Assembly (NCBI GenBank): GCA_010093995.1
Contig: ML992504.1
Coordinates: 1,663,394 to 1,727,393, forward strand
Reading direction: 5' to 3'
Source of the DNA: Elsinoe ampelina
Lineage: Eukaryota
DNA: 64,000 nucleotides
Every line of letters starts with the position of its first letter. Position 1 is the first letter of the stretch. The position numbers and the translations under genes are program-made. The notes under the pieces were generated by a model. That model made no database searches and was not told the DNA's origin. It saw only the letters and a program-made list of their open reading frames with translations. Of the stretch, positions 17,130-64,000 are shown piece by piece.

Positions 17130-18059
17130 TCACCCAAGGTCTGGCTTTCGGGCAGACACTGCAACATATGTCCACAACTCCTGGCCCCAGTAAGCATAGA
17201 CCGCTCCTACGACATGCGGAAAATGGTCTTTCAATCCAAGCAGACTGATAACAAGATATGGAAGGTACGCCAGGGCGAAGACGAGCCTCAAAGTCGGCTT
17301 AACGTTCTTGGTGTAATCTCGAATCGTGACATCTTCGAAGCCGGCCTGCTTGAGTTGAGTTTCCATGACGCCAGGTTCCCAGGCGTCGCAAGCAGGCATG
17401 GCTGCGACAGCGTTGAACCTATACCACATTTTCAGAAGCTGCTCGGAATTCTGCCTCTTCTGCCCTTCATCCATCTTCCCAGCAGGCAGATACCATCTTC
17501 GTCGTCTTGCGAAAGCCTCCACGTAGTCACTCAGCTTGGACTTGTCCGCTGTGTTGTATTCGCTCATAGCTAGACGTCCCCCCGGCCTCAATACACGGAA
17601 TACCTCGTTGAATACTTGTTGCGGGTTGGGGGCGTGAACCACTGTCCCCATCGAGTAGGCCCCGTCCAGAGAAGAGTCCCGAAATTCGCGGAGATCTTGG
17701 AAATCGCCCTTTCGTACTCTGATCCTATCCTGCATTTTGCGCTTCTGAATGTATTTCCGTGCCTTGTCTAGATGGTGGTCAACAAGGTCAATGCCCTCGA
17801 CTTCAAAGCCTCTCTCCACTGCATGAGCTGCCACCCTGCCTGCGCCGCATCCCAAGTCCAGAACTCGTGAGCCGGCCGGTAGATTCAAAATTTCAAAGAG
17901 GCGATCTTCCAACTCCTTCAAAGACGGCTGTAAAGGTATTGCAATGCCCCTTCCAGTGGCAGAGTAACCAAAGTGGCGGGTCTCACGGAATAACACGCTG
18001 TAGCCAATCCGACTTTCTGCTTTTTCGAAGAGTCGCACAACAGGATTTGGCTTGTCCAT
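17130..18059 (-). CDS. Class I SAM-dependent methyltransferase (sterol-MT/RebM-like), paralog 1
   Basis: ESRIGY, ETRHFGY, VLDLGCGAG, FRVLRPGGRL. The real start is ATG 18059; the ORF-track start at 18170 lies inside a TIR. Confidence 0.9.
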   Translation of the reverse strand: MDKPNPVVRLFEKAESRIGYSVLFRETRHFGYSATGRGIAIPLQPSLKELEDRLFEILNLPAGSRVLDLGCGAGRVAAHAVERGFEVEGIDLVDHHLDKARKYIQKRKMQDRIRVRKGDFQDLREFRDSSLDGAYSMGTVVHAPNPQQVFNEVFRVLRPGGRLAMSEYNTADKSKLSDYVEAFARRRRWYLPAGKMDEGQKRQNSEQLLKMWYRFNAVAAMPACDAWEPGVMETQLKQAGFEDVTIRDYTKNVKPTLRLVFALAYLPYLVISLLGLKDHFPHVVGAVYAYWGQELWTYVAVSARKPDLG

Positions 18060-18157
18060 GATTATTTTTGACGATGGCGGTGCTGCGAGGATTGGATGCA
18101 CGATCCGAATGGTATTGATTTGCGGAGCAAAGGGGTTGGGGAGAGGCGACCATCGTA

Positions 18158-21100
18158 TTCTTGTTCTCAAAATTAGTGGGATTGCTTGGCAGAATTTCGC
18201 CGTGTTTACTACTAAAAATTGCCTCCACTACCTAGTCTTTTAGCCATTATAGCATTACAAGCTAATTGAAGCCTTATTTATTCACCGGTATAGCCTTTTA
18301 AGGTGTTGTTAAAATGTCTAACGCGTTAAATAGTCTAATAACGCACTTATAATTGCATAATAAGGCTATATATAGCTAGGAGGCTACCGAGGCTCTTAGT
18401 AATCTAGCACTACTATAGACTTAATACTACGCTACTAATCTAGCTACTAGTCCTTCTAGTATATTCTCTAGTAAGGTAGATAAGAATTCTACTAAGAGTA
18501 AGTTAGAAAATAAGGCTAATAAGGCTAATAACTTAGTAGAGGTAAATCGTAACCTAGTAAGGTTTCTATCTAAGGATACCTCCCCCCTCTTAGATATACT
18601 ATCTTTATAAGATCTTTCTTAATTTAACAATCTAGATAGCTAGCTATCTTCTCTAAGGTATATTTATTTTAAGGATACTTAATTCCCCTTACTACTACTA
18701 AGTTATTATTACTTAATATATTTAATGAAGGGAAAGAGTCCCTAGTACTTTTCCCCTAAGGTATTAGCTACTCCTTAACTCTATTAAGTACTCTTAAAGT
18801 TAACTATAGTTACTAAGTACTAGAAGGAGACTCTAGAAAGAGTTAATAAAGAGCCTTAACTACTTTTAAAGAGTACTTATAAAGTTTAGATTAAGTAAAG
18901 AGTATCTAAATAACTATCTCCTCCTACGCGGCTAAGTTAGCTAAGTAAATCTTAGTATACTTTCTCCTCTACTAAAACTAAGACTATTAATAAGCTAATA
19001 ACTAAAGGGGCTAGTAAGGCTAAAAAGAGGTCTACTATAAAGAAATTAGCTTTAAAGAACTCTATAGTAGTAAATACTACGCCGCTATAGAACTAGCTAC
19101 TAAAGTTTAAGTACCTTAGTAGGTCTCGGCCTTTACTAAAAGAGGTATCTCCTCTCCCTTTACCTTCTTAGCCCTTATAGCCTCTAGTTATATCTCTATT
19201 AGTCTACTAGTTAGTAGTGTTTAGCGCTATAACTACTTAGAGCGAGAGTTACGTCGTTACTACTAATAAGGATCTAGCTTAGCTTAAGGTTAATACTCTA
19301 ATAGTAGCTAAGGACTATACTATTAAGGCTCGATTAGGGAGAGTAGAGCAACTATAAAGAATAGCACGTTTAAGTACTACTAGTACTAAGCCTAGTAATA
19401 GTAGTAGCTAGAGTAAATTTAATACTAACTAGCACTAGTAAGTTACTATTAAAGTAGCTAAATTAGCTTATTTAAATAAGCAGCGCGATATAAGGCTATT
19501 AGTTACTAATTACTAGTTAAACTTAGAGCAAAATTTAGAAGTGCTACTCTCTATAAGCTTCTTCTTTAACCTAGCTACTAGACCTTTCCCTTTCTCTATT
19601 ATAACTAACACTAGTTAAAACAATACTAATCTTATAGATAATGCTTATTAGAGGTCCTACTTAGCCTATAAGTAATCTTAGCCTTATCTAATTATAACTA
19701 GTATTACTTTTCTTAAACTTAGTAATTTTTAGTAGGTAGTAAAAGAGGTATTTAGGTGTATCTCCTCCTATTATAAATATTAAAGAGAAGGCTACGGGTG
19801 CTTACTAGTTAGTAATAAGTATAAACTACTTAGCCTTAACGTAATCCGCGTCTAGTAATTAGAGATAAAGGCTAGCTATAGCTTAATTATAGATCCTCTA
19901 AGAGTAGTCTTTAATTACGTTATAAGGGAGACTATAAAGAGAGCTAAGAGGTTATATTAGCGTACTAACGCTATAATCTCTTTATTACTAAATTTGCCTT
20001 AGTTACTCTTTATAAATCCGGCCTTATAGTAGTACTTCTTATTTAGTAGTATACTACTAGTCTCTCTACTACTACTAATACTATAATTTAACTCCCCTTT
20101 ACCCCCCCTTAATAGCTTAGATAATGCTAGCTTACCTCTTCTAGCTATTACTAAGAATAATAAGTAGCTAGAGTAATTTATTAAGGTCCTTATCTAGAAG
20201 TAGCTAGTTACTAAGAATAACTTATAGCTTATCCTTATAAGCCTCTAGCGTAACTATTAGACTCTTCGGATGCTTAAATACTAGCTTAAGGGAATAATAA
20301 AAGAGGTAATACTATAGCTTAGCCTATAAAGGATAATTACTTAAGAGATAGAAAGATTTATTAATTTACTACTAATTACTACTCTTAATACTTTATATAA
20401 TCTAAATATAGATATATAGGCGTAATAAGAGGCTTTTTCTAATTAATTTTATATATATTTAATAAGGTCTTTCTAAATGTATATCTACCTTTTAGAAGAG
20501 GTTACGAAAATTAACTCTATAACTAAAGTCTAGGTAACTCCTCTATATAAAAGTATTAAATTTGACCTTATAGTCTTCCTCTCTATATTTTAGTACTAGA
20601 TAACGCTACTACCGTATATAACGCTTTAATAGATTAAATGTTAGCTTAATTAGATTAAAATCTAGTAAATAAGGTAGAAGCTAGAGAGGGACAACTCTAT
20701 AATAGTAGTAAATATCGATAATAGTCTAGAGAATAATATTAATTACGTAAGCTAGTACTACCTTTTTTAAATCTCTTATCTCCTTTCTATAAGTGCTATA
20801 ATTATCTATTACTAGCACTAACTATAGCGCTAAATAAGCATTTATCTATAGTATTAGAGTAATCTCTAACTACTTATTAAATACCTCTACTACTACCGAG
20901 CCTTAGATAAAGAGTAGATTAGCTATAGAGCTATCTATATATAGCGCTAGAAGTAGTAACTACTAAGTGCCCTTTATCTTCTACCGGATATCGATAGCTA
21001 GAGTACTAATAGGTAACTAGCTATAACGCCTCTAGAAGGTTTTACTATTTATATATAACTTATTAACGAATATAAGCTAATCTATATAATAGGCCTTAAT

Positions 21101-21758
21101 ACTCTCTCTCTAAGCTAAGTACTTTAACTTATTATAAGCGGTATAGATGTGCTATTTAACCTTTTATAACTACCTTACTAAGTGTAGATAATAGCTAATT
21201 AATAACTAAGTAATATTTACTCTCTAATAGATACTATAGTACTCTACTATCTTATCTAAGAAGAAGTTATACTTTAAGGCTAGTAGCTCTAGTAAGTCCT
21301 CTACTATAGCTAGTAATAGGAGGCGTAGTCTACCTTATCTATTATACTCTTTAAGCATCTCTAGCTAGCTATAAGCCTTAAAGTTTATCTACACTTAATA
21401 GATAGAGGAGTGCCTTTTCTTAAGGTAAGGGAGGAAAGTAAATACCTCTTTAGGCTTTATACCCTTAGTAAAGAAGTCTAGTAACGCTATATAGTTAGTA
21501 TCCTCGAGGCTATATATAACTATAAGGATTGTGCTAAGGCTATAGTAATTTATGCCGGAGGGCTATAAAGAGGTTAGTTTAAGCTAGAGAATAACAAGGA
21601 GCATTATATAACTCTATACTACTAATTACTACAGCTTTAATTTCGACAGTGACGACGTGATAGCAATAAAGGATAGATTAATAGGTGCAAAAAGCGGAGT
21701 TTAGTGAGAATTTACAAACAAAATTGCCAAGCAATCCCACTAATTTTGAGAACAAGAA
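18158..21758 (-). mobile_element. Complete RIP-inactivated Tc1/IS630-like DNA transposon, element A (3.6 kb): transposase on - strand ~21560-20490, second ORF relic on + strand
   Basis: Perfect 34-bp TIRs TTCTTGTTCTCAAAATTAGTGGGATTGCTTGGCA (18158-18191 / 21725-21758); TA on both flanks. De-RIP motifs QLIFVDES, SVLVMDNCSTH, LPPYSPDFNPIE. Confidence 0.92.
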
Positions 21759-22224
21759 TACTTGAGCAGTGCCTGCAGATGAGGCAGCGCTTGGAACCGC
21801 CCACGCCTGTGACGCAAGGTTATGCTTCGGATGCATTGGTGAAAATGATCGGCATGCTCCTTCACGAGTAGCTCATGGCCAGTGCAAGTGGCGCAGTCAT
21901 GCTCGAATTGGAACGACAAGAGATGTGATCTATGCCGCTTTTGCCCCACAAGGGAGCTGGGCAGCGCCTACAGAAACGTTGCGTCGCTCTCTCATTGGTT
22001 ATGCATCGAGCATGTTGCACCTGCCAATTCTTGCCTATAGGTGCTGCAACAGTTGACTCTGTGCAACATGGTAAGACGTACTGTTGGACCTGACAATCTC
22101 CATCAGTTGTTTCAAGCAGCGCCAGGTCTTTGCTGCGTCTCATTTTTAGGCGACTTTGGTCAGAAGACCTTCTCTGAATTCATATCTGAACGACCACTTG
22201 TGACATTGAGCTCCGACCGTAGAC

Positions 22225-23148
22225 TTAACAGTGGGCCGCATAGCGCTGAAGCGTTCCCAGCGAGCTTCGCTCTTCTACATCAGGCTTCCTTGCCGATACT
22301 ACCACGAATCTCCATAACCGCTTCTTGAATGCTCGCCAGCCCAGGACAGCTCCGACCGCGTTCGAAAAGTGATGCTTGAGACCAAGGGCGGAAATCACAA
22401 GGTATGGAAAGAATGCCAGAACGTAGAAGAACCGAAGCATAGGCCGAATATTGTCCGACCAATCTCTCACTTCGATATCAACGAATCCTGCTTCGGCGAG
22501 CATGTCTTCGATGACACCAGGAGCGAACATTTCGCACCCAGGCATCGAAGCATATTTGTTGAACTCTTCTAGGGGCGCCACGATCTGGGAGCTCTGTCCA
22601 AGCTTTCCAACATGATCATACTCAAACATGGCCAATCTGCCTCCGGGCTTGAGTACACGATAGAATTCTCGGAAAGCTTTGCGCGGATCTGTGGCGTGGA
22701 CAACCGTCTCCATCGAATAAACGCCATCCATGGACGCGGTGTTGATGATGCCCTCGAGCTGCTGATAGTTGCCGCTTTGGACGTGTATTCGATCCTCGAG
22801 GCCAGCGGCGGCAATGTTCAACCTGGCCTTTTCCAGATGATGATCGACCAAGTCTACACCATGCACTTGCAGACCTTTTCGGGCCAGATGAATGGCGACT
22901 TTAGCAGCTCCGCTTCCGGCATCAAGGACGTGGTCGTCTTTCTTCAGGTTCAGGATCGCCGCGAGCCGGTCTTCCATCGCCCGGAGTGGTCCATTGAAGG
23001 GAAACGGCCAGTAAGTGTCCTCCTCATAATAGCCAAAGTGGCGAGTCTCGCCCAATACGAGTTTGTACCCTATTCGAGACTCGTACGAGTTGTAGAGACG
23101 TATGAGTGGAGTGGGTTTCTCAATCAAATGTGTCTTATCATCCGCCAT
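22225..23148 (-). CDS. Class I SAM-dependent methyltransferase (sterol-MT/RebM-like), paralog 2, 307 aa
   Basis: YESRIGYKLVLGETRHFGYY, VLDAGSGA, YSMETVVHA, YRVLKPGGRLAMFEY; intact single exon. Confidence 0.93.
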   Translation of the reverse strand: MADDKTHLIEKPTPLIRLYNSYESRIGYKLVLGETRHFGYYEEDTYWPFPFNGPLRAMEDRLAAILNLKKDDHVLDAGSGAAKVAIHLARKGLQVHGVDLVDHHLEKARLNIAAAGLEDRIHVQSGNYQQLEGIINTASMDGVYSMETVVHATDPRKAFREFYRVLKPGGRLAMFEYDHVGKLGQSSQIVAPLEEFNKYASMPGCEMFAPGVIEDMLAEAGFVDIEVRDWSDNIRPMLRFFYVLAFFPYLVISALGLKHHFSNAVGAVLGWRAFKKRLWRFVVVSARKPDVEERSSLGTLQRYAAHC

Positions 23149-23435
23149 GTTTGAGCCGGGTGCGTTCTGTGATGTAGTCCCAAGCAGATCTCAACTTCGG
23201 AACAACAATGCAGAACGACTGGATTCGATGACTTGAAAACCTCAATGTTGATGGCAAATGACAAGATCTTGCGCCGACGTTTCTGACGCGGCCAACTTGC
23301 AGCTTGCCATGACAAGCATTGACTTGAGCTGCGGCCTTTATTGATTGCCCGCACCGCCCCCAGCGGCAAGACTCGGACGTGATTGGGCAGATTGTGCTTT
23401 GCCCAGCACTATTTTTCAGCTTTTGCTCGGGACTA

Positions 23436-26400
23436 CAGCTGTTTCGGATTCAAGCCGGCCACCCCAGCCTTGGCGGAACGCTGAACGACCTTACGTCACC
23501 AAAATTGGCTGGCTAGAGGTCGAGATTGATTATTTGCCATATAGTTGTTTAAATAGCTAAATCTAGTCAGTTTTTGAAGCTTAAAAAAGGTATAATAGTT
23601 GTCTCTTTACTTCTATATATTGCTATAGTTACTTACTGTCTCGATAAGGCTAAGCTAGCTAACCTTATTATTCTTCTTACTAATAGCTATAGTAACTACG
23701 TAGTCTACTATAAGCTATATATTACTTACTTAACTATCTATAATATTTTACTATCTCTTAAGTTCTTTAGAGAGCTTTATTTTTCTATTTTAATATATAT
23801 TTAGTATACTTAGTAGTTTACTCTCTTCCTTAAGGCTTAGCTCTTTACCTACCTTACTAATATACTAACTACTTATCTCGATAAGCTATAAGATTAGCTA
23901 TTTAAAGAGCATAGTAAAAGGATTAAATTAACTACTATTTAGAAGGCTATTAAGTAATAGAAGTAGTCTTAAAAAGTTACTTAGAAAAAAGCTATAGAAA
24001 GAGATAAAGTTTTATATATAGTATAGTTAGAGAGGTATAAGAGCTAGCTAGCTAATATAATTGTTTACTTAGATAAATCTAGCTATAATAAGCGCTCTTA
24101 CTAGAGGTATTATAGCTAGTTACTAAAAGGTGTTAAATATAAGAATAGTTAGCTAAAGACTTATACTAAAAGGTAGAGCGTACTTCTAGCTATTATAACT
24201 AGAGGATACCTCGAAGGTACGCTTATCTATTATAGCTCGATTAAAGGCCTTATCTTCTAAGATTAGCTAGAGTATACTATACTACTATAACTCGAGCCTA
24301 GTATAATTATAGTAATAGATAATACGTTAATCTACTATATAGAAGAAGTATAAAGAATATTTAAAGAGTATAGATTATACCTTAAGTACTTACCTTCTTA
24401 TTTACTAGATTTTAATTCTATTAAGAAGAGCTTCTTAGTACTAAAGGTATAAGTAAAGAGGTATTATAACTTAGCCTCTAGCTATTAATCTTTTAGTAAA
24501 TTCTTAGCTTATAGAGTTAGTTAGTATAGTAGTAAAGGTACTTATAATTAGTTTAGGTACTATAGATATAACGTAGAGTAAATAGAGCAAATAGTATAAA
24601 GATAAAGGTAAGATTAAGCTTATAAAAAAAGTACTAAGTCCTTATTAAAAACTCTATACTACTAGTACTATAAGCCTATACTACTCTACTAGCTTATCTA
24701 AGCTAAATTATACTATCTAGTTTAGTAGCTAAGTTAGATTATACTAACTTATATACCGAGATAGAGCGCTATTTAGCTTAGCTACTAAGATAGAGTATTT
24801 TAATATTAGTATAAGAGTAGTAAATTAGATTTATCTTAGCTACTAAGCTAGATAGCCTATAGCTATATTAAGTTAAACTCTTTAGCTTTATTCTTTTTAC
24901 TTAAAGGCTTAAACTCTAAAGGCTTCTACTACTTCTTAAACCTTAATATCTCTCTCTTAATTCTTATAAGTAACTTCTCTTTTAAACTCTATAACTTAGT
25001 TTACCTCTTCTCTAAAATCTTATAAATACTATTAATATTAAATTTAGTATCTCTTAGGTAGTAGAAGGCTTAATTAAGCGCTATACGCTTGCTTTTAAAG
25101 GCTAGCTTCTACTTTAGATACTTAAAAAAGTTAAATAACACCTTAGTAGCGTTAAATTATATATATATTAGTAAAGATAGAGAAGTAGTTACTATGCTAG
25201 TATAAGGCTAAGAAGGAGGTAGTATACCTTATATATTTATATTATACACCTATATAGTTACTAGTAAGGTTAATAGTACTCTACTACTACTACTAAGCGG
25301 AGAGAGATAAGGCTACTCCTTCTTAGTAATAGTCCTATTAGTCTTCGATTTGCTTAATTTAAGCACTAGAGAGCTATAAGTTAAAGGGTCTAATATAGTA
25401 TACTTACTAGCTTAAGCTATAGCTATCTATATAAGCTAGATTAGACTATTAATTAGATAGTGCTCTTTATACCTATTAATCTAGTAAAGACACTTATAGT
25501 TAGAGTACTAGTTACTAATATACTACTAGTACTTAAAAGAAGACTCTTAATTACTTATTATAAATAATAAATTCGACTACTAGCTTATAGTTATACTTCG
25601 CTAACTACTCTAGCTAATATTAAGCTTTTTAACTTTATCTTTTAGTATAAAGGTAGATATAGTAGATATTATTTCTAGCTATAGAGGAAGGCTTACTAGT
25701 ATAGTAAGCCTTAGCCTTATACTTTATAAAGCTAGTAGAGGCTAAGGAAGTACTTATAAAGTTACTAATAGAGTTATTAGCTACTCTAGCTTTAAGAAGG
25801 TATACTATAAATCTATATTAAGCTTATTATAGCCTTCTTCTAACNNNNNNNNNNNNNNNNNNNNNNNNNNNNNNNNNNNNNNNNNNNNNNNNNNNNNNNN
25901 NNNNNNNNNNNNNNNNNNNNNNNNNNNNNNNNNNNNNNNNNNNNCTCTTTATATACCTTTCTATTATAGTACTTACTCTTACTAATAGTAATGCCTAATT
26001 ATACCTCTACCTTATACCGCTTAATATTTACCGCTAAAGGTACTACCTCTACCTATACTAAGGTAGAAGTAACTTCCTCTACCTTTACTAACTAGTATAC
26101 CCTTAACTTACTTAGTGTTAGTAAAGTAGTTATATACTAGCTAGAGTATATAGCGTTATAGTTAAGTAATTATATAGCTTAACTAGTAAGATTAGAGAGG
26201 CTATTTATATTATAAGGTATATAAGGATAGTTAATAGTACTAGCTATAGATAAGGCTTATAAGTAGTTAGGGTTAATAAAGAGGTATAAATAGCTTCTTA
26301 AAGAAGAAAGTAATAGTGTTACTAGCCTCCTTATACTAAGTCGAAGAGTTATACTAGAGTAGCCTCGAGGCTAAGGAGTCTTAAAGTAGTTATTAGTAAG

Positions 26401-26632
26401 GTATACTATAGAGTATACCTTTATATAAAGCTTAAATTAGTAGATATAGAGATAATTAACCAATTATAGTATATAGTTCTTTAGCTTTATATACAAATTT
26501 ACGGTAGCGACGAGTTATTTAAGCTCTATTAATCTATGACCTTTACCGCCTATTCAGCAGCCAATTTTTGGTGGTGCAGTCGCAAATCCGGTCGCCAAGG
26601 CTGGGGTGGCCGGCTTGAATCCGAAACAGCTG
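23436..26632 (+). mobile_element. RIP-inactivated Tc1/IS630-like DNA transposon, element B: DD34E transposase on + strand ~23700-24570, second ORF relic on - strand
   Basis: Perfect 40-bp TIRs CAGCTGTTTCGGATTCAAGCCGGCCACCCCAGCCTTGGCG; TA at 23434-35 and 26633-34. Literal IVIDNTLIYY...YLPSYLLDFNSIK is read as de-RIP VMDNASIHH...LPPYSPDFNPIE. Contains an assembly gap. Confidence 0.92.
25845..25944. other. Assembly gap (100 N)
   Basis: Run of N inside element B. Confidence 0.99.
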
Positions 26633-27182
26633 TAATGCGACTTGAACAGCGAACACACCCATCACGGCAGCATCTAACTATGCACAGGTCGCGACGATCG
26701 GTCTGACTGGCTCGCGTCTATCTTCCCCGACAGCTGGATACCTCAGCTTCAGCGCCTTGCCCTCCGAACATCCTGGCTACGAGGATGGAACCCAGCAAGA
26801 GCCCATCTGTTGGTCGCTGCGTTGAGTGCGCACTCGTTAGTGCATCACTCGTTTGCGTGTGCCATCGTTGGTCTGTAAACGAATGCGGTCATGGTGGAGC
26901 TCTTCATTCTCCATAGACCTCTTCGCATCAGCTTTGTACCACCATGCGCCTACGCTGTCCAAAGCGGCTAGCCCTCATGCAGACATTCACCATGGCACAC
27001 ATCGGGGGTCGCGATTGGTGCATAATGTCTGCACTGCCGTCCTTCATCTTCTATTCAATGTAATGGCGTCGATACGCGCTCGAAACTGACGCTACCGTGC
27101 CGCGAGAGCTTCACTGCCTTCCATTTCAGCACAGGTATCTGCTTATCCAGAGTTATGCTTTTTCACCCAAGGCGGGCATGTC

Positions 27183-52739: not shown

Positions 52740-54722
52740 TCAAGCGGTTGGAAAGTTTCCTCTGATTGCAAGAAGTGCGATGGATTTGATTGTGCACTGG
52801 ACATTGTCAGTCTCTCGACATAAAAAGCTTCTGCACCAAGCGCACCTAGACCTCAAACAGGCTGCCCCTATGGGCCGTACGTTTGTCGGATCCCTGTGCT
52901 GCGCCATGTGATTCTGGTACTTCAGATGATGGCTAGTGAGCCGGATCTGAAGTGTACCGGGACCATCATGAGATGAGGTACTCGACTCAACAGTTGGCGT
53001 CTCCTCAGCCTGCACCATCTCTGGTTCCTCATAAGGAGCTGCAGCTGGTATCGCTTGTGCATCCGGCAGCGTCCCTATGCCATCGGGCAAGGAGCCGTGA
53101 AGTTCGGTTCCGGACGTCGACGCCGCAAGGTGCGACTCGATGTGGCCATAATTGTTGTAATCCGGCATCAGGTCCACCAGACTATTTTGTGAATCAATTA
53201 TGTAATCTATCCCCTGGTTTGAGCTATGCTCTGTGCAAGATTGCGGAACATAGGAGTTGGGAAGCATCCCCCCCGGAGTACCGAGAAACTCAACGTTGCT
53301 TGCAAATTGAGGCTGTAAGTTGCCCTGCTGATAGAAGGTGTCGATTGGAGTTGGCAGTGCTGGCTGGCTTGAAAACGAACCAGCTCTTGGCCATCCGTTG
53401 AAGTGATATGGCTCCAAGTCGGCCAGCTGGGGATCGTCCCCAGGTTGTACGGGAAGCCATTGCGGGTACAGCACGTGGTAATGGTTCCTGGGATGCTCAG
53501 CGTCGTCCATGTTTTGAGATTACGGGGATACTTACCCATCACACGCGAGACTAATGATTGGCATGGTCAATGATTCCAACCCTGTCGGGCCGTTGTAGTT
53601 CATCATTGGGCGGTCAGTAACATCCACCACATGAATGCAGATTTTGAGCATGTCTGCGAGGGCTTTGAGACCGACAGCATCGATGGCTTCGACTCGGTCG
53701 ATCCTGGGTGCCTCCGCACTTCCTTGTACGAGACCTTGGTTCCCATATCGCTGACGATTTTGGCTGATGAAACAAGACAGCATGGTCTTGAACCTCGTTA
53801 GAAGTAAATCAGCACTGAAAAGAGGATGGCGTACCTCGAAATAGCCCAAGATCAGAGTGACTTGTCGGTCATCATTGAACAGACGCATCAATGCAGGCTC
53901 TGTGTCCCGAATGCTAGTTTCAGAAGCAGTACTAGAATTACGGCGGATGGCCTTGAGAATTTCGGAAGTAGCGCTGCGATACTCTCTGAATCGCGGTGTA
54001 TTGAACAGGCCGGCCTTGTAGACATCCCGCTCTCGATCACGGATGTTCATCCACACGAGATCAACTTGTTGGTAGTCAAGTGTTTCTGCGACATGCTCGA
54101 AATATCGGAAGAGACAAGCTGAACAATGGTAAGTGGCTGTATTGACACTTGCTTCATTTCCGTACCGAACAGTGCCCTGTCGCCGACTCCATGGCAGCGA
54201 CGACGATCCTGTGAATGGTCAGGAGCAAGAAGAGCAGTGTGTCAAACATGACTAACCGCACTTGTGATGCCCAAGATTTCCAGGTTGTTGTGGAAGGGTT
54301 GCTTTCGATCGATAAAACCATGCTGATGAAATTAGTAATATGTTCAAGAACGAAAGCATGGCATCTCCGAAATGGAGATGAAGTAGTCAGTAATTAGAGT
54401 TCAGGGTAATACGGCATGAAGTCTAAACATGCTTTCTTTCACTTACCTGCCATGTTCCATTTTCAGCCTGATTCGAAAGGGAAGTGGTTTTGAATTGCTC
54501 TTGCATTCCGTCCATTGGAAAGGGTCGAGTGTGAGGATCGTAGGAATAGCGAATATGTTGGACAGATTGGTGTCGATTGAAGGGCTGCTGTGTCGTATAT
54601 GACGACGGAGCAGTTCGGCAAGAAGAAGCGCCATGACCAGGATAATACCACGTCGGCTGAGCGCTCGATCCATTGTAATTTGACGGCGTGTCGAAAAAGT
54701 ACGTTGGCTGCATTTGCTGCAT
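52740..54722 (-). CDS. Divergent otubain (peptidase C65/OTU)-like protein lacking the catalytic Cys (about 6 exons)
   Basis: Spliced RRCHGVGDRALFA|CLFRYFE, LMRLFND, AIDAVGLKALADML, PIISLACDG|NHYHVLYP; five GT-AG introns keep one frame. Confidence 0.72.
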
Positions 54723-57512: not shown

Positions 57513-57812
57513 GCTGAAGCTCTGTATTCACAGATCAGGGCAGAGGTCGCAACAGGTGTGGGTGGTAGTTGGGAGAGATGGTGAGGTGAAGCTGAATCGC
57601 AAGGTATGCGGCCAAAGTGCGAGAGTTCAGAAGCTGCGAAGACGCGGCACTGCTGCAAAAATGACCAAGTCTCACGTGTGATTGAACTCTTGATGATGAG
57701 AAACATGAAGCCGCGGGCGAAGCTGTTATCGGCATGTCGGACTTAACGAAGCGGCCTGTCCCGCTTTTTATTCTTGTGCCCAAAAATCGCGGGATAAGCT
57801 TGGCATTTTAGA

Positions 57813-58854
57813 TAGCTGCACCCACCAAAATCCACCAATATTAGCCTATTTCGTGAATTACTTATCCATCTCGTATCTATTTAAAGCCAAACTGGTCTAT
57901 ACTATTAATCTATCTTAGAGACTAAGTTAGGCATCTATCTAGCGTAAACTAGACTCTATCTAGAACACAAACTAGATACAAGCTAGATTAACACCTTATA
58001 GCGCCGAGACTATCTTAGCTATCTATCTAAGATTAATACAATCTCTAAGCCTTTTTCGAGGATAGAAGAATAATAGATAGTATATATAGGCTTATATCTT
58101 ACCTCTTATATAGTACTATTAGCTATTAGTGCAAAAATTAGTATAATACTAGCTATATTAAGCTTCTAATAGCTCTCTAAGATAGAGGTTAGCTAAAGAC
58201 CCTTACTAATAAGATACTTAATAATCTTAAGTAGCTTATAGTAGATAAGCCTAATATATACTTAGATAAGTATATAGAGTACCTTAAGCTTAAATAGGGA
58301 GTATTAGTATTATAATCTACTATTAGTTATAGCCTTCTTTCTCGAGATTTACTACTTAAGGTAATAGGTTAGATTACTAGCTAGAGGGACAAGGAATTAT
58401 ATAGTACTTAGTATAAGAACATTAAGCACTATTAGAGTAACTAGCTTGTCTTTATTAATAAGGCTATAGTAAGTAAAAGGTGCTTAATAAGGCGCCGAGG
58501 TTATACTATACAAGGTACACTAGTAGCGGATTAGATAGACTAGTATATTAGTAAGTACTTCTTAGTACTTCTAGCTATTACTAAAGAGAGGTAGTTAAAG
58601 AATCCTATAGTCTTCTAAGGCTTAATTACTACTAAGATCTTTAAAGATTAGTTTTACGATTAGTTTTAGAACTACCTAATACTATAGTATATACCTTTTC
58701 TAGGCCTATAGTTAGTAGTAGTATTAGATAATTACTTAATTTATTAGCGTAAAGTAAGTAAAATCTAATATAAGTAAGTACTAAGCTAATACTTTAGGTA
58801 CTTATATATATTACTTATAGTTATAGGGTTACTATTATCTTTCTACTAGCCTAC
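57813..58854 (+). mobile_element. Left part of a third RIP-mutated Tc1/IS630-like transposon (element C), cut off within the catalytic domain; left boundary approximate
   Basis: De-RIP QLVFIDEA, VVVLDNCSIH, intron 58754-58797, then ...IIFLPAY ending at 58854 without the expected SPDFNPIE. Confidence 0.8.
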
Positions 58855-61800
58855 GTTACGAAAGTCCTAAGCGTAGAGAGTTAGAATATTAGGTTTCTCC
58901 GTATTAAACTAAGTTTAACTACGTTAGGTCGCTACAAACGCACTATACCTACCTAAATTTAGTTAAACGCACTGTACCTACCTAATTTTAGTTAAACGCA
59001 CCGTACGTGCCTTAGATTAGACAAACGCTCTACTTGCTATAACTAGAATAGATGTAGAAATTAATAAGCATCTTCCGGAGAAAGCTCTCTAAGCTAGTAT
59101 TATTATAGATCTTGTCCGCTAGATAAAGGGGAAGTATATACTCTATATTATTAGAGCTCGGTATAGAAGCACTTTTACTATAATAGGAAAGTAGACATTA
59201 TACGCCTTATTCTCTAGCTTACGACATAAAACCCTAAACTAATATATACTTATTCTAACTCTATTTTATCGTCTCTACTTAGTTGTCTATTAAGGTATAA
59301 GATGTCTCTAAAGATAAGTACTTTTACGCAACTATATAGCTAGTAACAAAGGTTAACACTAACGAAAAGCGCCTCTATTGCCCTATAGCCTACGAGTTCT
59401 ACTATCTAGTAGCCTATATTGTCGATAATATAAAATAAGCTTATAGAGGAGCGTTTATAACTTAGGCTCGTAGATATAAGAAAGCTTTTCCTAAGAAGGA
59501 CTTAATTATTATAGCTAAGTACAGTTACGACATTAAGTATAAATACCTATAGACCTATTCTAGTACTTAGAAGTCGTTAGTAACGTAGGAAGAGAATAAC
59601 GATAGGAGCTAGATATACTACGTTAATAGTAGCTATAGTAGCGAGGCTATAGCCTATTCTAAGAAGATTAACACTAATATAGACAGGTACGGGAAATATA
59701 ATAGACATTTAGTTTAGGCTAAGCTAATCCCTCGTTTACTAACACGGAATAGTATACTTACTAGAAGAATAATTCTAGAGCTACGAAAGACTACCTAGAA
59801 AAGTAAGATCTAATAGATATCGGTATAGTGTCTAAGTAGCCCTAGAGATAGTACTAAGGATATAGTAGTCTAAACAACAGCTCGAAGGCGATTATAGTAG
59901 AGAAGTAAACGCTCTTTCTAGGAAGTTTAAGATTTACTCTAACTACCTATCTACGAGGTTATTAGTAAGGAGGTAATTAGTAATAATAAGAGGCTCCTTC
60001 TACTTCTTACCCTTCTCCTCTACCTTACCGAGCTTAATACTAGCACGGCTATAGACACTAGCGAAGGTAGAGGTAGTACGCTTCTTGCTTTACTAGCTCT
60101 CGGCGCTAGTTATAGTAGTTGTTAGAGAGGTAATAGAGGTAGTGTCTAGGTTAAGATCGCGGCACTTTATTGCTATATATTAAAGATAAGGTTACCCCGA
60201 CGCGTACTAAGCTTCTAGTAATAACCTATAGTCGTAGCTATATACGAGTAATAGTAGTTACGGAGGGAGCGGTAGTAGTAGCTTCGGTTATAGTATACCT
60301 TACTATAGCGGAGAGCAAGGAGAAAGGTATAGAGGAGAAAGAGAGTATTCCTCTCTCGGAGGTAGGTACGATAATACTTTTTCCTACTATATCCTACCGC
60401 CCTACTATTACTACTACTAAGTAGTAGTTATAGTAATAGCGCGTGTAGGATAATCTAGTATATAATCTTATAGACAGGATTTGTCGTACATATATTATAC
60501 ACTAATAATCTTATAAGGAAATACTTATAACCTATATAGATATAGAGGAGACTTTAGAGAATAAGGAAGAGGCTACTTGCTATACTAAAGGGTAGCTTCT
60601 TCCTCGACTCGTTTCCTACGTATAGTATATATATAGAGATTAATAAGAATATTCCCTAGCGGGTCTTCTAAGCTAGTGTTATTATAGATCTTGTCCGTTA
60701 GATAGAAAGGAATAAGTCCTTAGTAACTGCTCTAGTAGTATCGAGTAGATCCCTACGATATAATAGCAAATAGAGTAAAGCACTATCGTCTATATCGGAG
60801 TCTTATTAGTAAACTTATTATAGAGAATAAACTTTCCTCTTAGACTACTAACTCCGTTAGTAAAACTAACCTAAAGATAACTTACTAACCTAAGCCTTTT
60901 ACTACTGTTGCTAAATACTTAGGGTATGTCTTAAGCATCTTAAAGACTAACTTCTATAACGCCTCGCTATAATTTCCTAAGCTATTATAATTAGTAAAGG
61001 AATAGACTAACTCTTTAGCGTAAAAACTACGTAAGGTACCTTAGGCTACAAACTCTATATAGTTTAGGGACTAACCTAATAATATATAGGTGTAAACTAA
61101 CTAGTTAAGGTAATACCTATAGAAGTTATTATAACTCGCCTACCTAATATAGTCTAGTAGTTGACCTAAGTGTACCTAAGCGTTAGGCTATCGACATAAG
61201 AGACAATTGTTCTAGCTACGAAAGAAGTACTCTAGCTTCGTTAATGTCTACTATGCTTACTAACTACGCCTAGGGATCTTAACCTCTCTCGTTTTAAAGC
61301 CTTAGCTAGGTAGAGCTATTTAGACTCCTATAACTTATTCTATAGTATGTTATATATGTTAAAGTCGGCTGTGTTATTAATGTATATCTAGCTATATAGC
61401 CTTGTTTTATCTACCGGTATAACGTAGATACTATAGTAGATTTACGAGGTAGAGTAGATACGCCTACTAGTAAGGGCGTTCCGTCTAGCTCGCGCGCGTC
61501 GATTTGTCTAAGGCTTAATTAGTGTTATGCTATACTCTCAATTAGCTACTCTATCCGGCCGAGTAGGCTAATATAGATCTACTAGCGCTCCTATGTAGTA
61601 TAGGCGTTAACGCCGGCCCGATCTACTAGACTAGAAGCTATCCTCTATAGTTATTATAAATATAATACGAGCTAGTAACTTACCTTATAGGCTATTAGGT
61701 AATGCTTCGTTAGTGCCTTCGTCGTTTGTTGTCTATTCTTATACCTAGAGCTAGTCTTGTCTCTTATTGCTACGTATCCTCTACTATTTAGTTATACACT

Positions 61801-64000
61801 AGATAAAGTCTTATTCGTCTATATTAGGATTATTAGAATTATAGTTAGATAGTTTTCTATACTTTAAAGAATAGTAGAACTTAACGCGGAGGTCGCTTAC
61901 CTAGGAAGAATCTAGTTTAAGTCTATTAGGATCTAGTTTAGCGTCGAACTAATTAGAGTATTTAGTTCTCGAGTTAGAGCCTATGTCGGCTATACCTTAA
62001 TAAGCCTCGCGGATAAACACCGCTATTACTTGCTATAGCAATAGCCTAGGTAGCATATTAATAAGCGCCTCTAGTTCTCTTACTATACGCTATATAGCTC
62101 TCTTCTTAGCGCTAGGCTAGCCGAACTAAGAAGTAACATTTACCGTATTACTTACGCTAACTAGCGTACTCTAGATCTTAATTAGTTTAGTAGCTAATAG
62201 CCTAACTAACTTCGAGGGGTTATCGAATGCTACTAATATATTTGCTAGTTTAGTGTTATAAGTAGTAACCTAGTCTTTCTATCTAGCCTTCTTATTCGTA
62301 AGTTTAAAGGCGTCCTTAATAAAGCGTATATAATTATGCTCTAAATAATTAGAATCGAGGCTAGTAACTACTCTAAAATTATAGATAGCCTTTGAAAAAT
62401 GTGTTATTAAGTGCTATTTCGGAAAGTTAAAGTCGCTCTCTTCTTTCCTATCGCTATAATAGGCCCGGAAGGTTTCTTTATACTTATTTATCCTAAGTGT
62501 GTCTTAGCCTAGTAATTACGTACTAAGTTAGTATATATCTCCCTAAGGTCGTTCTAGCTTATTTAAGTATCTAGTAGTATATACTTAGTTAGTAGAGAAG
62601 GCACTAGCTACTAAGATTATAACACCTCTAGAGAAGTGCTTAGTATAACTAGCGTAACTAGCACCTCTAGTACTAGTATACTCTATAACTCTTTAATAAT
62701 AAGCTTAAGAAATTAAACCTTAATATTACTATAAAATTGTAGCTACTACTTAAGCCTATAATAGAAAGAGCTAAGAGTATTAAAATCCTTAAAGACTACG
62801 TATAGTTTAAGGGTGTTTATATAGTTAAAGAGTTTAGTATTACACTTCTTAAAGTATAGCTCGACTTCCCTTTTACTACTAATCTAGTCGACGAGGTAGC
62901 TTAAATCTAGCTAGATATTAAATAGACTATTACTAGTGTTACTAGTACTCTTTATAGTGTCGATTATATCTCTATTAAGATTAGTAATTCACTATAAAAG
63001 GAAATTAATAACCTATAGCTACGAGGAGGCTAGTAGTAAAGCCTCCTACTAGCTTAATATCTACTAACCTCTTAGTAATGACAACATAATACTATAAGTA
63101 CTAGAGGTGTTAGAAATAGAGTACTAGGTACCTTTATAACTACCTAAAGCTCCTTATAGTGTTTATTAATTTATATTACTATCTTATAGTACTTAGAGAG
63201 GTTATTAGAGATTACTCTTAGTATAAGTATAGGTTCTTAGACTATTAGTATTCTTAGCTCTCTTTTTTAGCTATCTTAGTAGAGTCTTTTTAATAGCCTT
63301 TATAACTAGCATATTCTCTTCCTTACTAGTTTCTATAGTTATAGCTTAAGGTTTACTTCTCTTATAACTAGTTAGTAGTTTTAAATAAATAGGCTTAGGC
63401 TCGAAGGTTAATAGTAGCTTACTAGCTATTAAGTAGCTAGAGTAATATAAATTACTTAGAGAGTGTTTAATAGGCTTCTCTAATACTAGAGAGTTATAAA
63501 ATCTAATACGAGATAGATACGAACTAGATTTAGTTAAGCCTTAGTTTAGATTAGTTATGTAATCTTAGTACTATAGCCTAGGCTTCTAGCTACTTTACTC
63601 TCGATATTATATGTGCTTTATATACTAGCTTTCTTCTTCTTCTTCTAAGTCTCGATATCTTAATAAATAGACGTAATTAACTTCTTATCTTACTAGTTGT
63701 AATTACTATATTAAGACTTCTAATAACTATAACTAAGTAATAGAGCTATTAAACTATCTAGTTATTCTACTACTTACGTAACTACTAATAACTACTACTT
63801 ACGAAGAATTAAAGAACTAAAGAAGAAGCTATTATAACTATAGTTCCTATATATACTATAATAGATCCTTACTACTACTATATAGATTAATACTATAAAC
63901 TCTAAAGATATAAGAAGAAAGTAATAAGTCGAGTTATAGACGACTTCTAAAGGAAGTAGACCTAGAGTGGTTTTTAGGTACCTAACGCAACCTAAATAGA
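58855..64000 (-). mobile_element. RIP-mutated Plavaka-type (CMC/EnSpm-related) DNA transposon nested in element C; transposase relic ~63900-61340
   Basis: Minus strand ~62435-62250 reads DFNFPK*HLITHFSKAIYNF...LEHNYIRFIKDAFKLTNKK (Plavaka FNxPKxH...ExxH...K.A...TN); C-terminal YINNTADF; subterminal repeats. Confidence 0.78.
58936..59028. repeat. Three tandem 29-bp subterminal repeats (AAACGCACTRTACCTACCTAAWTTTAGTT; third copy diverged)
   Basis: AAACGC recurs at 58936, 58965, 58994 and 59023. Confidence 0.9.

Follow-up and report, generated by a model that had tools for sequence, protein, structure and literature searches.

Convergent second-gene relics in RIP-mutated Tc1-like elements of Elsinoe ampelina and an intact counterpart in Elsinoe fawcettii

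Results

Elements A and B

The window, i.e., the whole 64,000-nt stretch of Elsinoe ampelina DNA analyzed here, contains two TA-flanked, heavily RIP-mutated Tc1-like elements with perfect TIRs, which we call A and B. Their limits are as follows.

18155-21761: element A, 3607 nt, bounded by a 37-nt perfect inverted repeat
18155-18191, plus strand: left TIR of A, TA target duplication at 18156-18157
21725-21761, minus strand: right TIR of A, TA at 21759-21760
23434-26634: element B, bounded by a 42-nt perfect inverted repeat
23434-23475, plus strand: left TIR of B, TA at 23434-23435, then CAGCTG...
26593-26634, minus strand: right TIR of B, TA at 26633-26634

An annotation made earlier from the letters of this DNA (hereafter the sequence-only reading) had described two Tc1/IS630-like elements with unrelated TIRs, which agrees with the TA flanks, the perfect TIRs, and the failure of blastn to match the TIR of A with that of B. 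A transition-tolerant alignment of A and B at the DNA level likewise returned nothing collinear above shuffles. Both interiors are strongly RIP-like: GC content is 0.25-0.39 inside the elements vs ~0.52 outside, and the RIP index TpA/ApT is 2.15 in A and in B, with (CpA+TpG)/(ApC+GpT) at 0.20 for A and 0.17 for B. Please note that a 100-N assembly gap lies in B at 25845-25944, i.e., the 3.2 kb given for B are nominal; contigs from sequencing runs enter it by 74 and 70 letters from either side, and none bridges it. In each of four runs, such contigs fill all 28 bins of 23416-26663; contigs of runs under three organism codes cover B exactly from TIR to TIR, and the two bins flanking B are covered in only one of the four runs, the source-like X1. 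ORF2, the second gene described below, belongs to a repeated, mobile unit.

Transposase relics

20447-21604, minus strand: transposase relic of A, aligned core 21541-20587, ORF limits approximate
23607-24483, plus strand: transposase relic of B, Pfam DDE_3 at 24060-24461

About 1 kb of transposase is found in each element at these positions, as had been claimed. Pfam DDE_3 was matched in B (E 1.5e-9, 38.3 bits vs a cut-off of 28.6) and is the sole match in the 12 frames of A and B; the relic of A alone matched no Pfam family. By RIP-aware alignment the two relics are clearly homologous (score 171.3 vs a null of 31.2±3.8, reached by 0/100 shuffles), and a RIP-aware codon-likelihood scan prefers minus frame 0 of A in all seven windows of 20555-21754. 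Plain tblastx of A vs B gave only a 30-residue transposase match at E 0.003. As counted from the A-B alignment, 34 residues separate the second D from the E position in B; A and element C (see below) have 18 extra codons there, which would be either a short intron or added spacing. Within its length class, the protein collection gave nothing for the RIP-mutated A transposase, and no intact transposase was retrieved. Of the features of the IS630-Tc1-mariner superfamily, the DDE_3 transposase is present (in B by Pfam, in A and C by alignment far above shuffles), the TA duplication stands at the TIRs of A and B, and C has a TA ahead of its TIR-like end. A single gene between the TIRs is not what was found: A contains an ORF2 relic of ~700 codons, and homologous relics are present in B and C.

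ORF2 of element A and its counterpart in Elsinoe fawcettii

18314-20419, plus strand: ORF2 relic of A, ~701 codons without introns; 54 stops in frame face aligned residues of P0001

The read-through translation of this relic, searched with phmmer, retrieved one protein among 1,835,955,588 representatives at E 3.8e-74, namely P0001, a 701-aa hypothetical protein of Elsinoe fawcettii (the citrus-scab fungus). In the RIP-aware alignment, residues 1-698 of P0001 are collinear with A 18314-20405 in a single frame, scoring 1182.5 vs 41.8±5.2 for 50 shuffles, with the other five frames at 38.1 or below. Thirty-eight of the 54 stops stand opposite Q, R or W of P0001, which is what C-to-T and G-to-A changes would produce. 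This alignment identifies a true coding sequence in the ORF2 of A. Base composition by codon position and stop counts did not separate its sense frame from the mirror frame (48 stops in 629 codons of plus frame 0, 52 in 628 of minus frame 2); the codon-likelihood scan preferred plus frame 0 in 13/16 windows of 18155-20704. Consideration was also given to one long same-strand gene in A, for which an antisense helical region scored 43.6 (1/60 shuffles reach it), and this was overruled by the likelihood scan and the P0001 alignment.

P0001 and a second protein, P0002, are 92.7% identical, both open, and located on E. fawcettii contigs of 3599 and 3600 nt, the contigs that encode KAF4546859.1 and KAF4546860.1. 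Only from these lengths, set against the 3607 nt of A, do we infer that the intact ORF2 lies beside a transposase inside TIRs. As read from their open frames, intact ORF2 genes persist in E. fawcettii, where these copies are filed as ordinary hypothetical proteins. When whole P0001 was the query, two proteins were found among the 8000 candidates scored in its length class, itself and P0003, both from E. fawcettii; residues 455-701 found only P0001 itself among 3323 candidates of their length class. Of 207 pattern matches to P0001 among metagenome contigs, 0 were confirmed, and a 21-mer from the TIR of B gave 0 matches. The protein collections and metagenome contigs searched yielded neither a free-standing ORF2 homologue nor a host-gene relative. 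It should be kept in mind that the query of the wide HMMER search was the RIP-mutated ORF2 of A, and more remote relatives of the intact protein could therefore have escaped detection.

The ORF2 protein

The ORF2 protein is largely disordered and rich in Ser, Pro and Lys. It has a basic stretch, KKRK, and three blocks that are conserved, among them the Cys/His block (C-x4-C-x6-H-x-C-x6-H) and a helical block at the C terminus. P0001 and P0002 differ at 51 positions, which are unevenly spread: 33 in residues 1-250, one in 251-400, seven in 401-450, three in 451-575, and none in 601-650. That two copies are open could result from recent spread and is not necessarily a sign of selection. When A is compared with P0001, compatibility reaches 0.76-0.88 in blocks 126-175, 451-475, 501-525 and 601-675, vs 0.20-0.36 in the linkers.

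Residues C480, C485, H492, C494 and H501 of P0001 are all kept or RIP-compatible in A; in B this is true of C480, C485 and a conserved EHY, within which the H501 position falls. The de-RIP pattern put forward by the sequence-only reading (C-x4-C, C, H, W, G, DP) has its counterpart in P0001, which has the Cys/His block and W...DPP at the aligned positions. Its proposal of zinc binding is compatible with C-x4-C-x6-H-x-C-x6-H, but no zinc-finger family was matched by the block in Pfam, PDB or named clusters; by eye, the block may resemble WRKY-GCM1-like domains. For P0001 as a whole, Pfam gave 0 families at E up to 1, sequence and profile searches of PDB gave 0 matches or one noise match at E 0.7, and Atlas gave unnamed fungal clusters at 0.92 with no match to a named cluster; residues 280-560 had no named look-alike in Atlas. 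A SAM domain is hinted at for the C-terminal helical block by an Atlas feature score of 0.89, which is below the lead threshold (cluster 42% SAM_1), with no Pfam match. Two single-sequence AlphaFold runs reached mean pLDDT values of 39.6 and 42.7, models too poor to compare.

ORF2 of element B

24904-26277, minus strand: ORF2 relic of B, in pieces, split by the 100-N gap
26277-26040, minus strand: N-terminal piece, marginal, 6/200 shuffles reach its score
25531-25099, minus strand: Cys/His block, significant
25036-24904, minus strand: C-terminal helical piece, not significant

In B, minus-strand frames are best in 9/9 windows of 24784-26544, which, with the plus-strand preference in A, bears out the proposal that the rest of each element is a coding relic convergent with the transposase; the peptide strings quoted for it are present in their frames in both elements. 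That A and B share a homologous accessory gene was supported only indirectly. The direct alignment of the two ORF2 relics, the check suggested at the outset, failed on these two RIP-mutated copies: it scored 35.1 vs 29.5±4.1, a value reached by 19/200 shuffles, the pairing ranked seventh of 36 frame pairs, and plain tblastx on the ORF2 pair named in the earlier reading gave E 6.7. Intact P0001, in contrast, aligned with the ORF2 of B over the Cys/His block at 68.0 vs 35.7±4.9 (0/100), and a profile of P0001 and A matched this block on the minus strand of B at 73.5 vs 36.2±4.8 (0/200). As a decoy, 3.75 kb of other RIP-mutated DNA was scanned in six frames with the C-terminal half of this profile, and the best score was 43.9. 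By these alignments the ORF2 of B is homologous to that of A, a relationship visible only through the intact protein or the profile and extending over ~150 residues, part of them low-complexity. The helical end segment ascribed to both elements is present in A (P0001 619-690), but not above chance in B, where it scored 28.6 (22/200 reach) and 27.6 (41/200 reach).

Element C

57769-57803, plus strand: left end of element C, TA and then TIR-like sequence, 22/30 bases as in the TIR of A
58052-58763, plus strand: transposase relic of C, RIP-aware score 227.1 vs the A transposase, null 30.2±4.0
62514-63522, minus strand: ORF2 relic of C, corresponding to P0001 residues 112-445, convergent with the C transposase

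By these matches, C is a third, A-like element with the same convergent pair of relics. Its ORF2 relic has a profile score of 104.9 vs 40.8±5.1 (0/100), and its transposase match ends shortly past the second catalytic D. C is disrupted, with 3.7 kb of unassigned sequence between the two relics and a right end outside the window: P0001 residues 446-701 had no significant match in 58764-62513, and no inverted partner of the left end was found up to 64000, where the window ends. Pfam matched 0 families in six frames of 57801-64000.

Discussion

The element layout, the coding nature of ORF2, its homology across A, B and C, and its place inside the repeated unit are shown by the results above. Our explanation as a whole, to which we assign a probability of roughly 0.6, is that of a two-gene Tc1-like lineage with a helper ORF2. 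In this explanation, the region contains dead, RIP-mutated copies of a TA-inserting lineage with a DDE_3 transposase within IS630-Tc1-mariner, whose unit consists of two inward-facing genes between TIRs with their 3' ends nearly meeting: a transposase of roughly 350-380 residues and, read from the opposite end, an intronless ORF2 of ~700 codons. Families A and B share this layout despite their different TIRs and diverged transposases, and the A-like C likewise. An intact ORF2 in the citrus-scab fungus, combined with relics in each element, argues that the lineage is built from two genes rather than one. The Tc1/IS630-like clade with a conserved second, convergent gene that the sequence-only reading had envisaged has accordingly gained an intact 701-aa counterpart, a homologous Cys/His block in B, a third element, and a unit that recurs in other runs.

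As to what ORF2 might do, for which the sequence-only reading had suggested candidate roles in targeting, regulation or evasion of silencing, we tentatively favor, at somewhat less than even odds, an element-encoded nuclear helper, putatively zinc-binding, over a passenger. Such a helper might bind DNA or chromatin via the Cys/His block, self-associate via the helical block, and assist or tune the transposase at element ends or targets, similar to the Myb-like second protein of PIF/Harbinger. The stronger version, in which this fungal lineage is an obligate two-component system whose transposase needs a 700-residue partner with an orphan zinc-binding module of a fold and family not yet described, the E. 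fawcettii copies being open and possibly active, is possible but doubtful.

The lack of a recognizable transposition-related domain in Pfam, PDB and named clusters would also fit a gene of host or foreign origin that an ancestor of these elements picked up once and that has since travelled with them without contributing to transposition, and so would the mostly low-complexity composition of ORF2 and its much faster evolution compared with the transposase (A-B 171 vs 68-74 for the ORF2 block). We consider such a passenger unlikely, given that position and orientation of ORF2 are kept across three diverged types of element whose TIRs differ, that conservation is block-wise, and that no free-standing homologue came from the collections and contigs searched. 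A long disordered protein that has a basic stretch and whose conserved blocks are small might instead serve the element against its host, outside the chemistry of transposition, by damping silencing or recognition by RIP, or else act as a self-regulator that holds back the transposase. RIP by the host is evident in these elements, and intact copies still persist in one species; yet all three copies in the window are RIP-mutated regardless, and we regard such a role as rather improbable.

A different concern is whether ORF2 is confined to A and C, the match in B being chance or composition in AT-rich, RIP-mutated DNA and its extra 2 kb something else. The non-significant direct A-B comparison and C-terminal segment of B, along with an aligned stretch that is partly Ser/Pro-rich, speak for this. 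Against it, the profile stands 7.8 standard deviations above codon shuffles and beyond anything in the decoy DNA, the match falls on the strand and frame independently preferred by the codon-likelihood scan, and it is collinear with the marginal N-terminal match, which makes chance a very unlikely explanation.

Tc1/mariner stands in textbooks as the minimal transposon, with a single gene and two TIRs, and is widely used as a tool because it is minimal. Conservation of a second gene across three diverged fungal families would mean that the superfamily can evolve a multi-protein design as well, and ORF2 would then be an orphan protein family whose connection to transposition or genome defense can be tested. 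The two-gene layout would also explain how these elements escaped standard annotation; the published E. fawcettii analysis gives only 0.37% TE cover, and a term search finds neither mariner nor transposon in it (PMC7259788). In more general terms, junk-looking AT-rich relics can be tied to an intact gene by read-through search and RIP-aware scoring.

Comparison with known systems

In full-text literature searches and in passages of PMC3441728, PMC4112212 and PMC5751038, no account was found of such a second gene in a Tc1-like element of fungi. Multiple coding sequences do occur among relatives. The Dici elements of the yeast Diutina catenulata are fungal ITm elements with a TA duplication and more than one CDS, which their authors regard as unusual for the superfamily; the three CDS encode an orphan of 143-146 aa, a transposase of 473-477 aa, and a degenerate, homeodomain-bearing transposase copy (PMC13469147). 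By comparison of descriptions, the present elements differ in having a single additional gene, whose 701-aa product shows neither a transposase nor a homeodomain signature in Pfam; P0001, with 0 Pfam families, corresponds neither to a degenerate transposase with a homeodomain nor to a ~145-aa orphan. The ciliate TBE and Tec elements are ITm-related, DD34E, and carry additional ORFs, with a zinc-finger protein in TBE (PMC7325037). Again by description, they differ in host (ciliates) and in having three ORFs, very long TIRs (Tec), and a recombinase (Tec).

Canonical Tc1-like (DD34E) elements, such as impala in fungi and Tc1 in animals, are 1.3-2 kb long and have one gene. Like the elements described here, they combine a TA duplication with short TIRs and a ~350-residue DDE_3 transposase, and the D-E spacing of 34 in B is the canonical one; A and B, in contrast, are 3.2-3.6 kb long with a second, larger, convergent gene, and A and C have the 18 extra codons between D and E. 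In PIF/Harbinger, a DDE transposase of another superfamily and a separate, Myb/SANT-like DNA-binding helper are encoded in one element with a 3-bp TSD. Neither its DDE_Tnp_4-type transposase, nor the 3-bp TSD, nor a Myb/SANT-like protein was found here, where only DDE_3, TA flanks, and a P0001 without a Pfam family are present; PIF/Harbinger is a functional analogy for the helper mechanism proposed for ORF2. If the obligate two-component system were true, it would be the first Harbinger-style helper in the fungal IS630-Tc1-mariner superfamily.

Two RIP-mutated elements and their surroundings

The GC content of the window is about 52%, with three AT-rich islands, and perfect inverted repeats delimit two of these as the Tc1-like copies A and B, each flanked by TA on both sides. 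A 100-N assembly gap lies inside B (25845-25944).

Elements A and B and their GC-normal ends
18155-21761, element A, perfect inverted repeat, arms 37 nt, length 3607 nt
18155-18230 and 21640-21761, GC-normal ends of A
23434-26634, element B, perfect inverted repeat, arms 42 nt
23434-23530 and 26540-26634, GC-normal ends of B

The terminal inverted repeats (TIRs) of A and B had been regarded as unrelated, and blastn of one against the other indeed returned no match; by eye, the inner ends of both read CTTGGC. The interiors bear the signature of RIP, the C-to-T or G-to-A mutation of repeats (TpA/ApT of 2.15 in each; (CpA+TpG)/(ApC+GpT) of 0.20 in A and 0.17 in B).

At the ends of both elements, the outermost 80-120 bases, TIRs included, are of normal GC with identical arms, while the interiors are RIP-saturated; the ends seem to have been spared by RIP. 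By eye, a further inverted motif, CACCAAAA(A)TTGGCTG, occurs at both ends of B (23497-23512 and 26556-26577), ~60-80 bases in and inward of the 42-nt TIR, and a similar CACCAAAAT is found near the left end of C, the A-like copy at the right edge; these may be putative subterminal binding sites. A solitary 30-base site in GC-rich DNA (53357-53386, minus strand) shares 23/30 bases with the B TIR; a whole-window search at up to 8 mismatches gave no partner, and the site could represent a solo TIR, a footprint or a single MITE end. Two tandem paralogous intact ORFs of ~308 aa (17130-18059 and 22225-23148, both minus strand) have A between them, with B downstream of the second; the two ORFs have similar N-terminal motifs and, by eye, a methyltransferase-like GxGxG stretch, and neither looks RIP-mutated.

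Transposase relics

A Pfam scan of 12 read-through frames, with X at each stop, had a sole match, DDE_3, on the plus strand of B at 24060-24461 (E 1.5e-9; 38.3 bits versus a cut-off of 28.6). Since ordinary comparison is nearly blind in RIP-mutated DNA, we wrote a RIP-aware, codon-level Smith-Waterman comparison in which every TA is allowed a CA or TG ancestor; scores are log-odds summed across the possible ancestral residues, and the null comes from codon shuffles. The transposase relics of A (minus strand, 21541-20587) and B (plus strand, 23607-24483) scored 171.3 against 31.2±3.8 for shuffles (0/100 reach), an alignment which doubles as the positive control of the method.

By our own count on this alignment, 34 residues separate the second D from the E position in B, and 18 more in A. 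A and C both have 18 extra codons relative to B between these catalytic positions; in minus-strand sequence the extra stretch (A 20690-20770, minus strand; C near 58740-58763) opens GTAGTA and closes CTAG, possibly a short intron or a DD52E-like spacing.

A second gene facing the transposase

Stop counts leave the plus-strand frame inseparable from its mirror frame. A codon-likelihood scan that allows for RIP, with 8496 codons from long ORFs elsewhere in the window as its training set, gave a clearer answer.

Frames favoured in the codon-likelihood scan
18155-20704, A, plus frame 0, 13/16 windows
20555-21754, A (transposase), minus frame 0, 7/7 windows
24784-26544, B, a minus-strand frame, 9/9 windows

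These preferences indicate that a long relic ORF (ORF2) opposes the transposase in A and in B, bearing out the tail-to-tail arrangement of the sequence-only reading. The read-through translation of 18314-20452 in A had exactly one phmmer match among 1,835,955,588 representative proteins, P0001 (701 aa; E 3.8e-74; query 36-693 on P0001 36-693). Both P0001 and P0002, which share a cluster, are 'hypothetical proteins' from Elsinoe fawcettii and lie on contigs of 3599 or 3600 nt, close to the 3607 nt of A. The RIP-aware alignment of A with P0001 runs through residues 1-698 in one frame (18314-20405) with a score of 1182.5, versus 41.8±5.2 for 50 shuffles. Among 689 aligned positions, 199 are identical, 368 fit TA-context de-RIP and 421 fit any C-to-T or G-to-A change, and the 54 stops in A stand opposite Q (15), R (13) and W (10), among others. 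These results identify ORF2 of A as a genuine gene, and the counts make A a diverged, RIP-killed relative of the Elsinoe fawcettii gene rather than a copy. The C-x4-C...C...H...W...DP pattern once reconstructed for A agrees with P0001, which carries a Cys/His block and W...DPP at the aligned positions.

Another Elsinoe fawcettii protein, P0003 (615 aa; contig of 48,978 nt), joins ~200 Lys/Arg/Glu-rich residues unrelated to ORF2 to ORF2 residues 13-395 (86% identity). It looks like a chimeric gene model, so that a shortened ORF2 copy has entered the annotation within an ordinary gene.

Comparisons with B (profile, P0001 + P0002 + A relic)
A versus B, ORF2 directly: 35.1; null 29.5±4.1; 19/200 shuffles reach
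25531-25216, minus strand, P0001 alone (470-583): 68.0; null 35.7±4.9; 0/100 reach
25531-25099, profile (P0001 470-622): 73.5; null 36.2±4.8; 0/200 reach
26277-26040, N-terminal piece: 41.1; null 32.1±4.1; 6/200 reach
Helical tail: 28.6; null 24.2±3.7; 22/200 reach
Helical tail, profile: 27.6; null 24.7±3.9; 41/200 reach

A shared ORF2 in A and B, as had been claimed, stands through P0001 or the profile, but not through direct alignment, where the pair ranks 7th among 36 frame pairs. RIP-mutated DNA from elsewhere (3.75 kb, six frames) served as a decoy, on which the C-terminal half of the profile scored 43.9 at most. Strand and order also agree for the N-terminal piece, though it is marginal, and most of the protein's middle block would lie inside the assembly gap of B. 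The helical end segment attributed to both elements corresponds in A to P0001 619-690, but in B it is matched by too many shuffles. On balance, the ORF2 relic of B is very probably homologous.

In the right-hand island, the left end of C is at 57769, with TA and a TIR-like sequence sharing 22/30 bases with the A TIR.

Relics in C
58052-58763, plus strand, transposase relic, versus A transposase 227.1; null 30.2±4.0; the match ends just past the second D
63522-62514, minus strand, ORF2 relic, P0001 112-445; 104.9; null 40.8±5.1; 0/100 reach

ORF2 residues 446-701 did not match significantly anywhere in the AT-rich 3.7 kb between these relics, nor did any Pfam family; by extrapolation, the right end of C is apparently slightly past base 64000. 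The left end and both relics show C to be A-like and disrupted, its two genes convergent as in A and B.

Contigs of four public runs (one source-like, three under two further organism codes) were compared on 23300-26750. All four cover 28/28 bins of 23416-26663, and the two flank bins around B are covered by the source-like run only; judged by this coverage, ORF2 belongs to the mobile unit. The differences are mostly transitions (X3: 367 versus 78 transversions), an excess which would be expected of one family's differently RIP-mutated copies.

The reading frames of P0001 and P0002 are both open; 51/701 residues differ between the two, unevenly spread.

Differences between P0001 and P0002 (P0001 residues)
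1-250: 33
251-400: 1
401-450: 7
451-575: 3
576-600: 3
601-650: 0
651-700: 4

Compatibility of A with P0001 is 0.76-0.88 in 126-175, 451-475, 501-525 and 601-675, and 0.20-0.36 in the linkers. At the level of these comparisons, ORF2 is demonstrably a genuine coding sequence, conserved block by block, in three diverged element types.

Possible role of ORF2

By sequence, ORF2 is an orphan. Up to an E of 1, P0001 matches no Pfam family; ORF2 has no relative in the PDB, none outside Elsinoe fawcettii in two word-seeded searches, none in metagenome contigs and no named look-alike in the Atlas, where its C-terminal part gives a sub-threshold lead to a SAM-domain cluster (0.89); single-sequence AlphaFold produced no usable model. 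By eye, the Cys/His block resembles what we take to be a WRKY-type C-x4-C motif.

The body of the protein is long and disordered and includes a basic stretch; the protein also has a small Cys/His block and ends in a helical block. From these features, together with its obligatory position within the element, we read it as an element-encoded nuclear helper, which would bind DNA or chromatin, might self-associate, and could assist or tune the transposase as the second protein of PIF/Harbinger does. We give this composite reading a probability of roughly 0.4. That ORF2 is instead a passenger gene seems to us unlikely, and a host-directed or self-regulatory role somewhat more so. The nuclear helper is the reading we prefer.

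Relation to known systems

The elements described here constitute a TA-inserting DDE_3 lineage whose unit consists of two convergent genes. They share target-site duplication, TIRs and DDE_3 with Tc1-like elements, but depart from the one-gene organization of the latter. A full-text literature search, not extending to Repbase and Dfam, yielded no description of the two-gene layout or of the ORF2 protein. Multi-ORF ITm elements as such are already known: ciliate TBE and Tec are on record (PMC7325037), as is yeast Dici since 2026, whose authors consider an extra CDS unusual for the superfamily (PMC13469147). The extra genes of TBE, Tec and Dici differ in kind from ORF2 (PMC7325037, PMC13469147).
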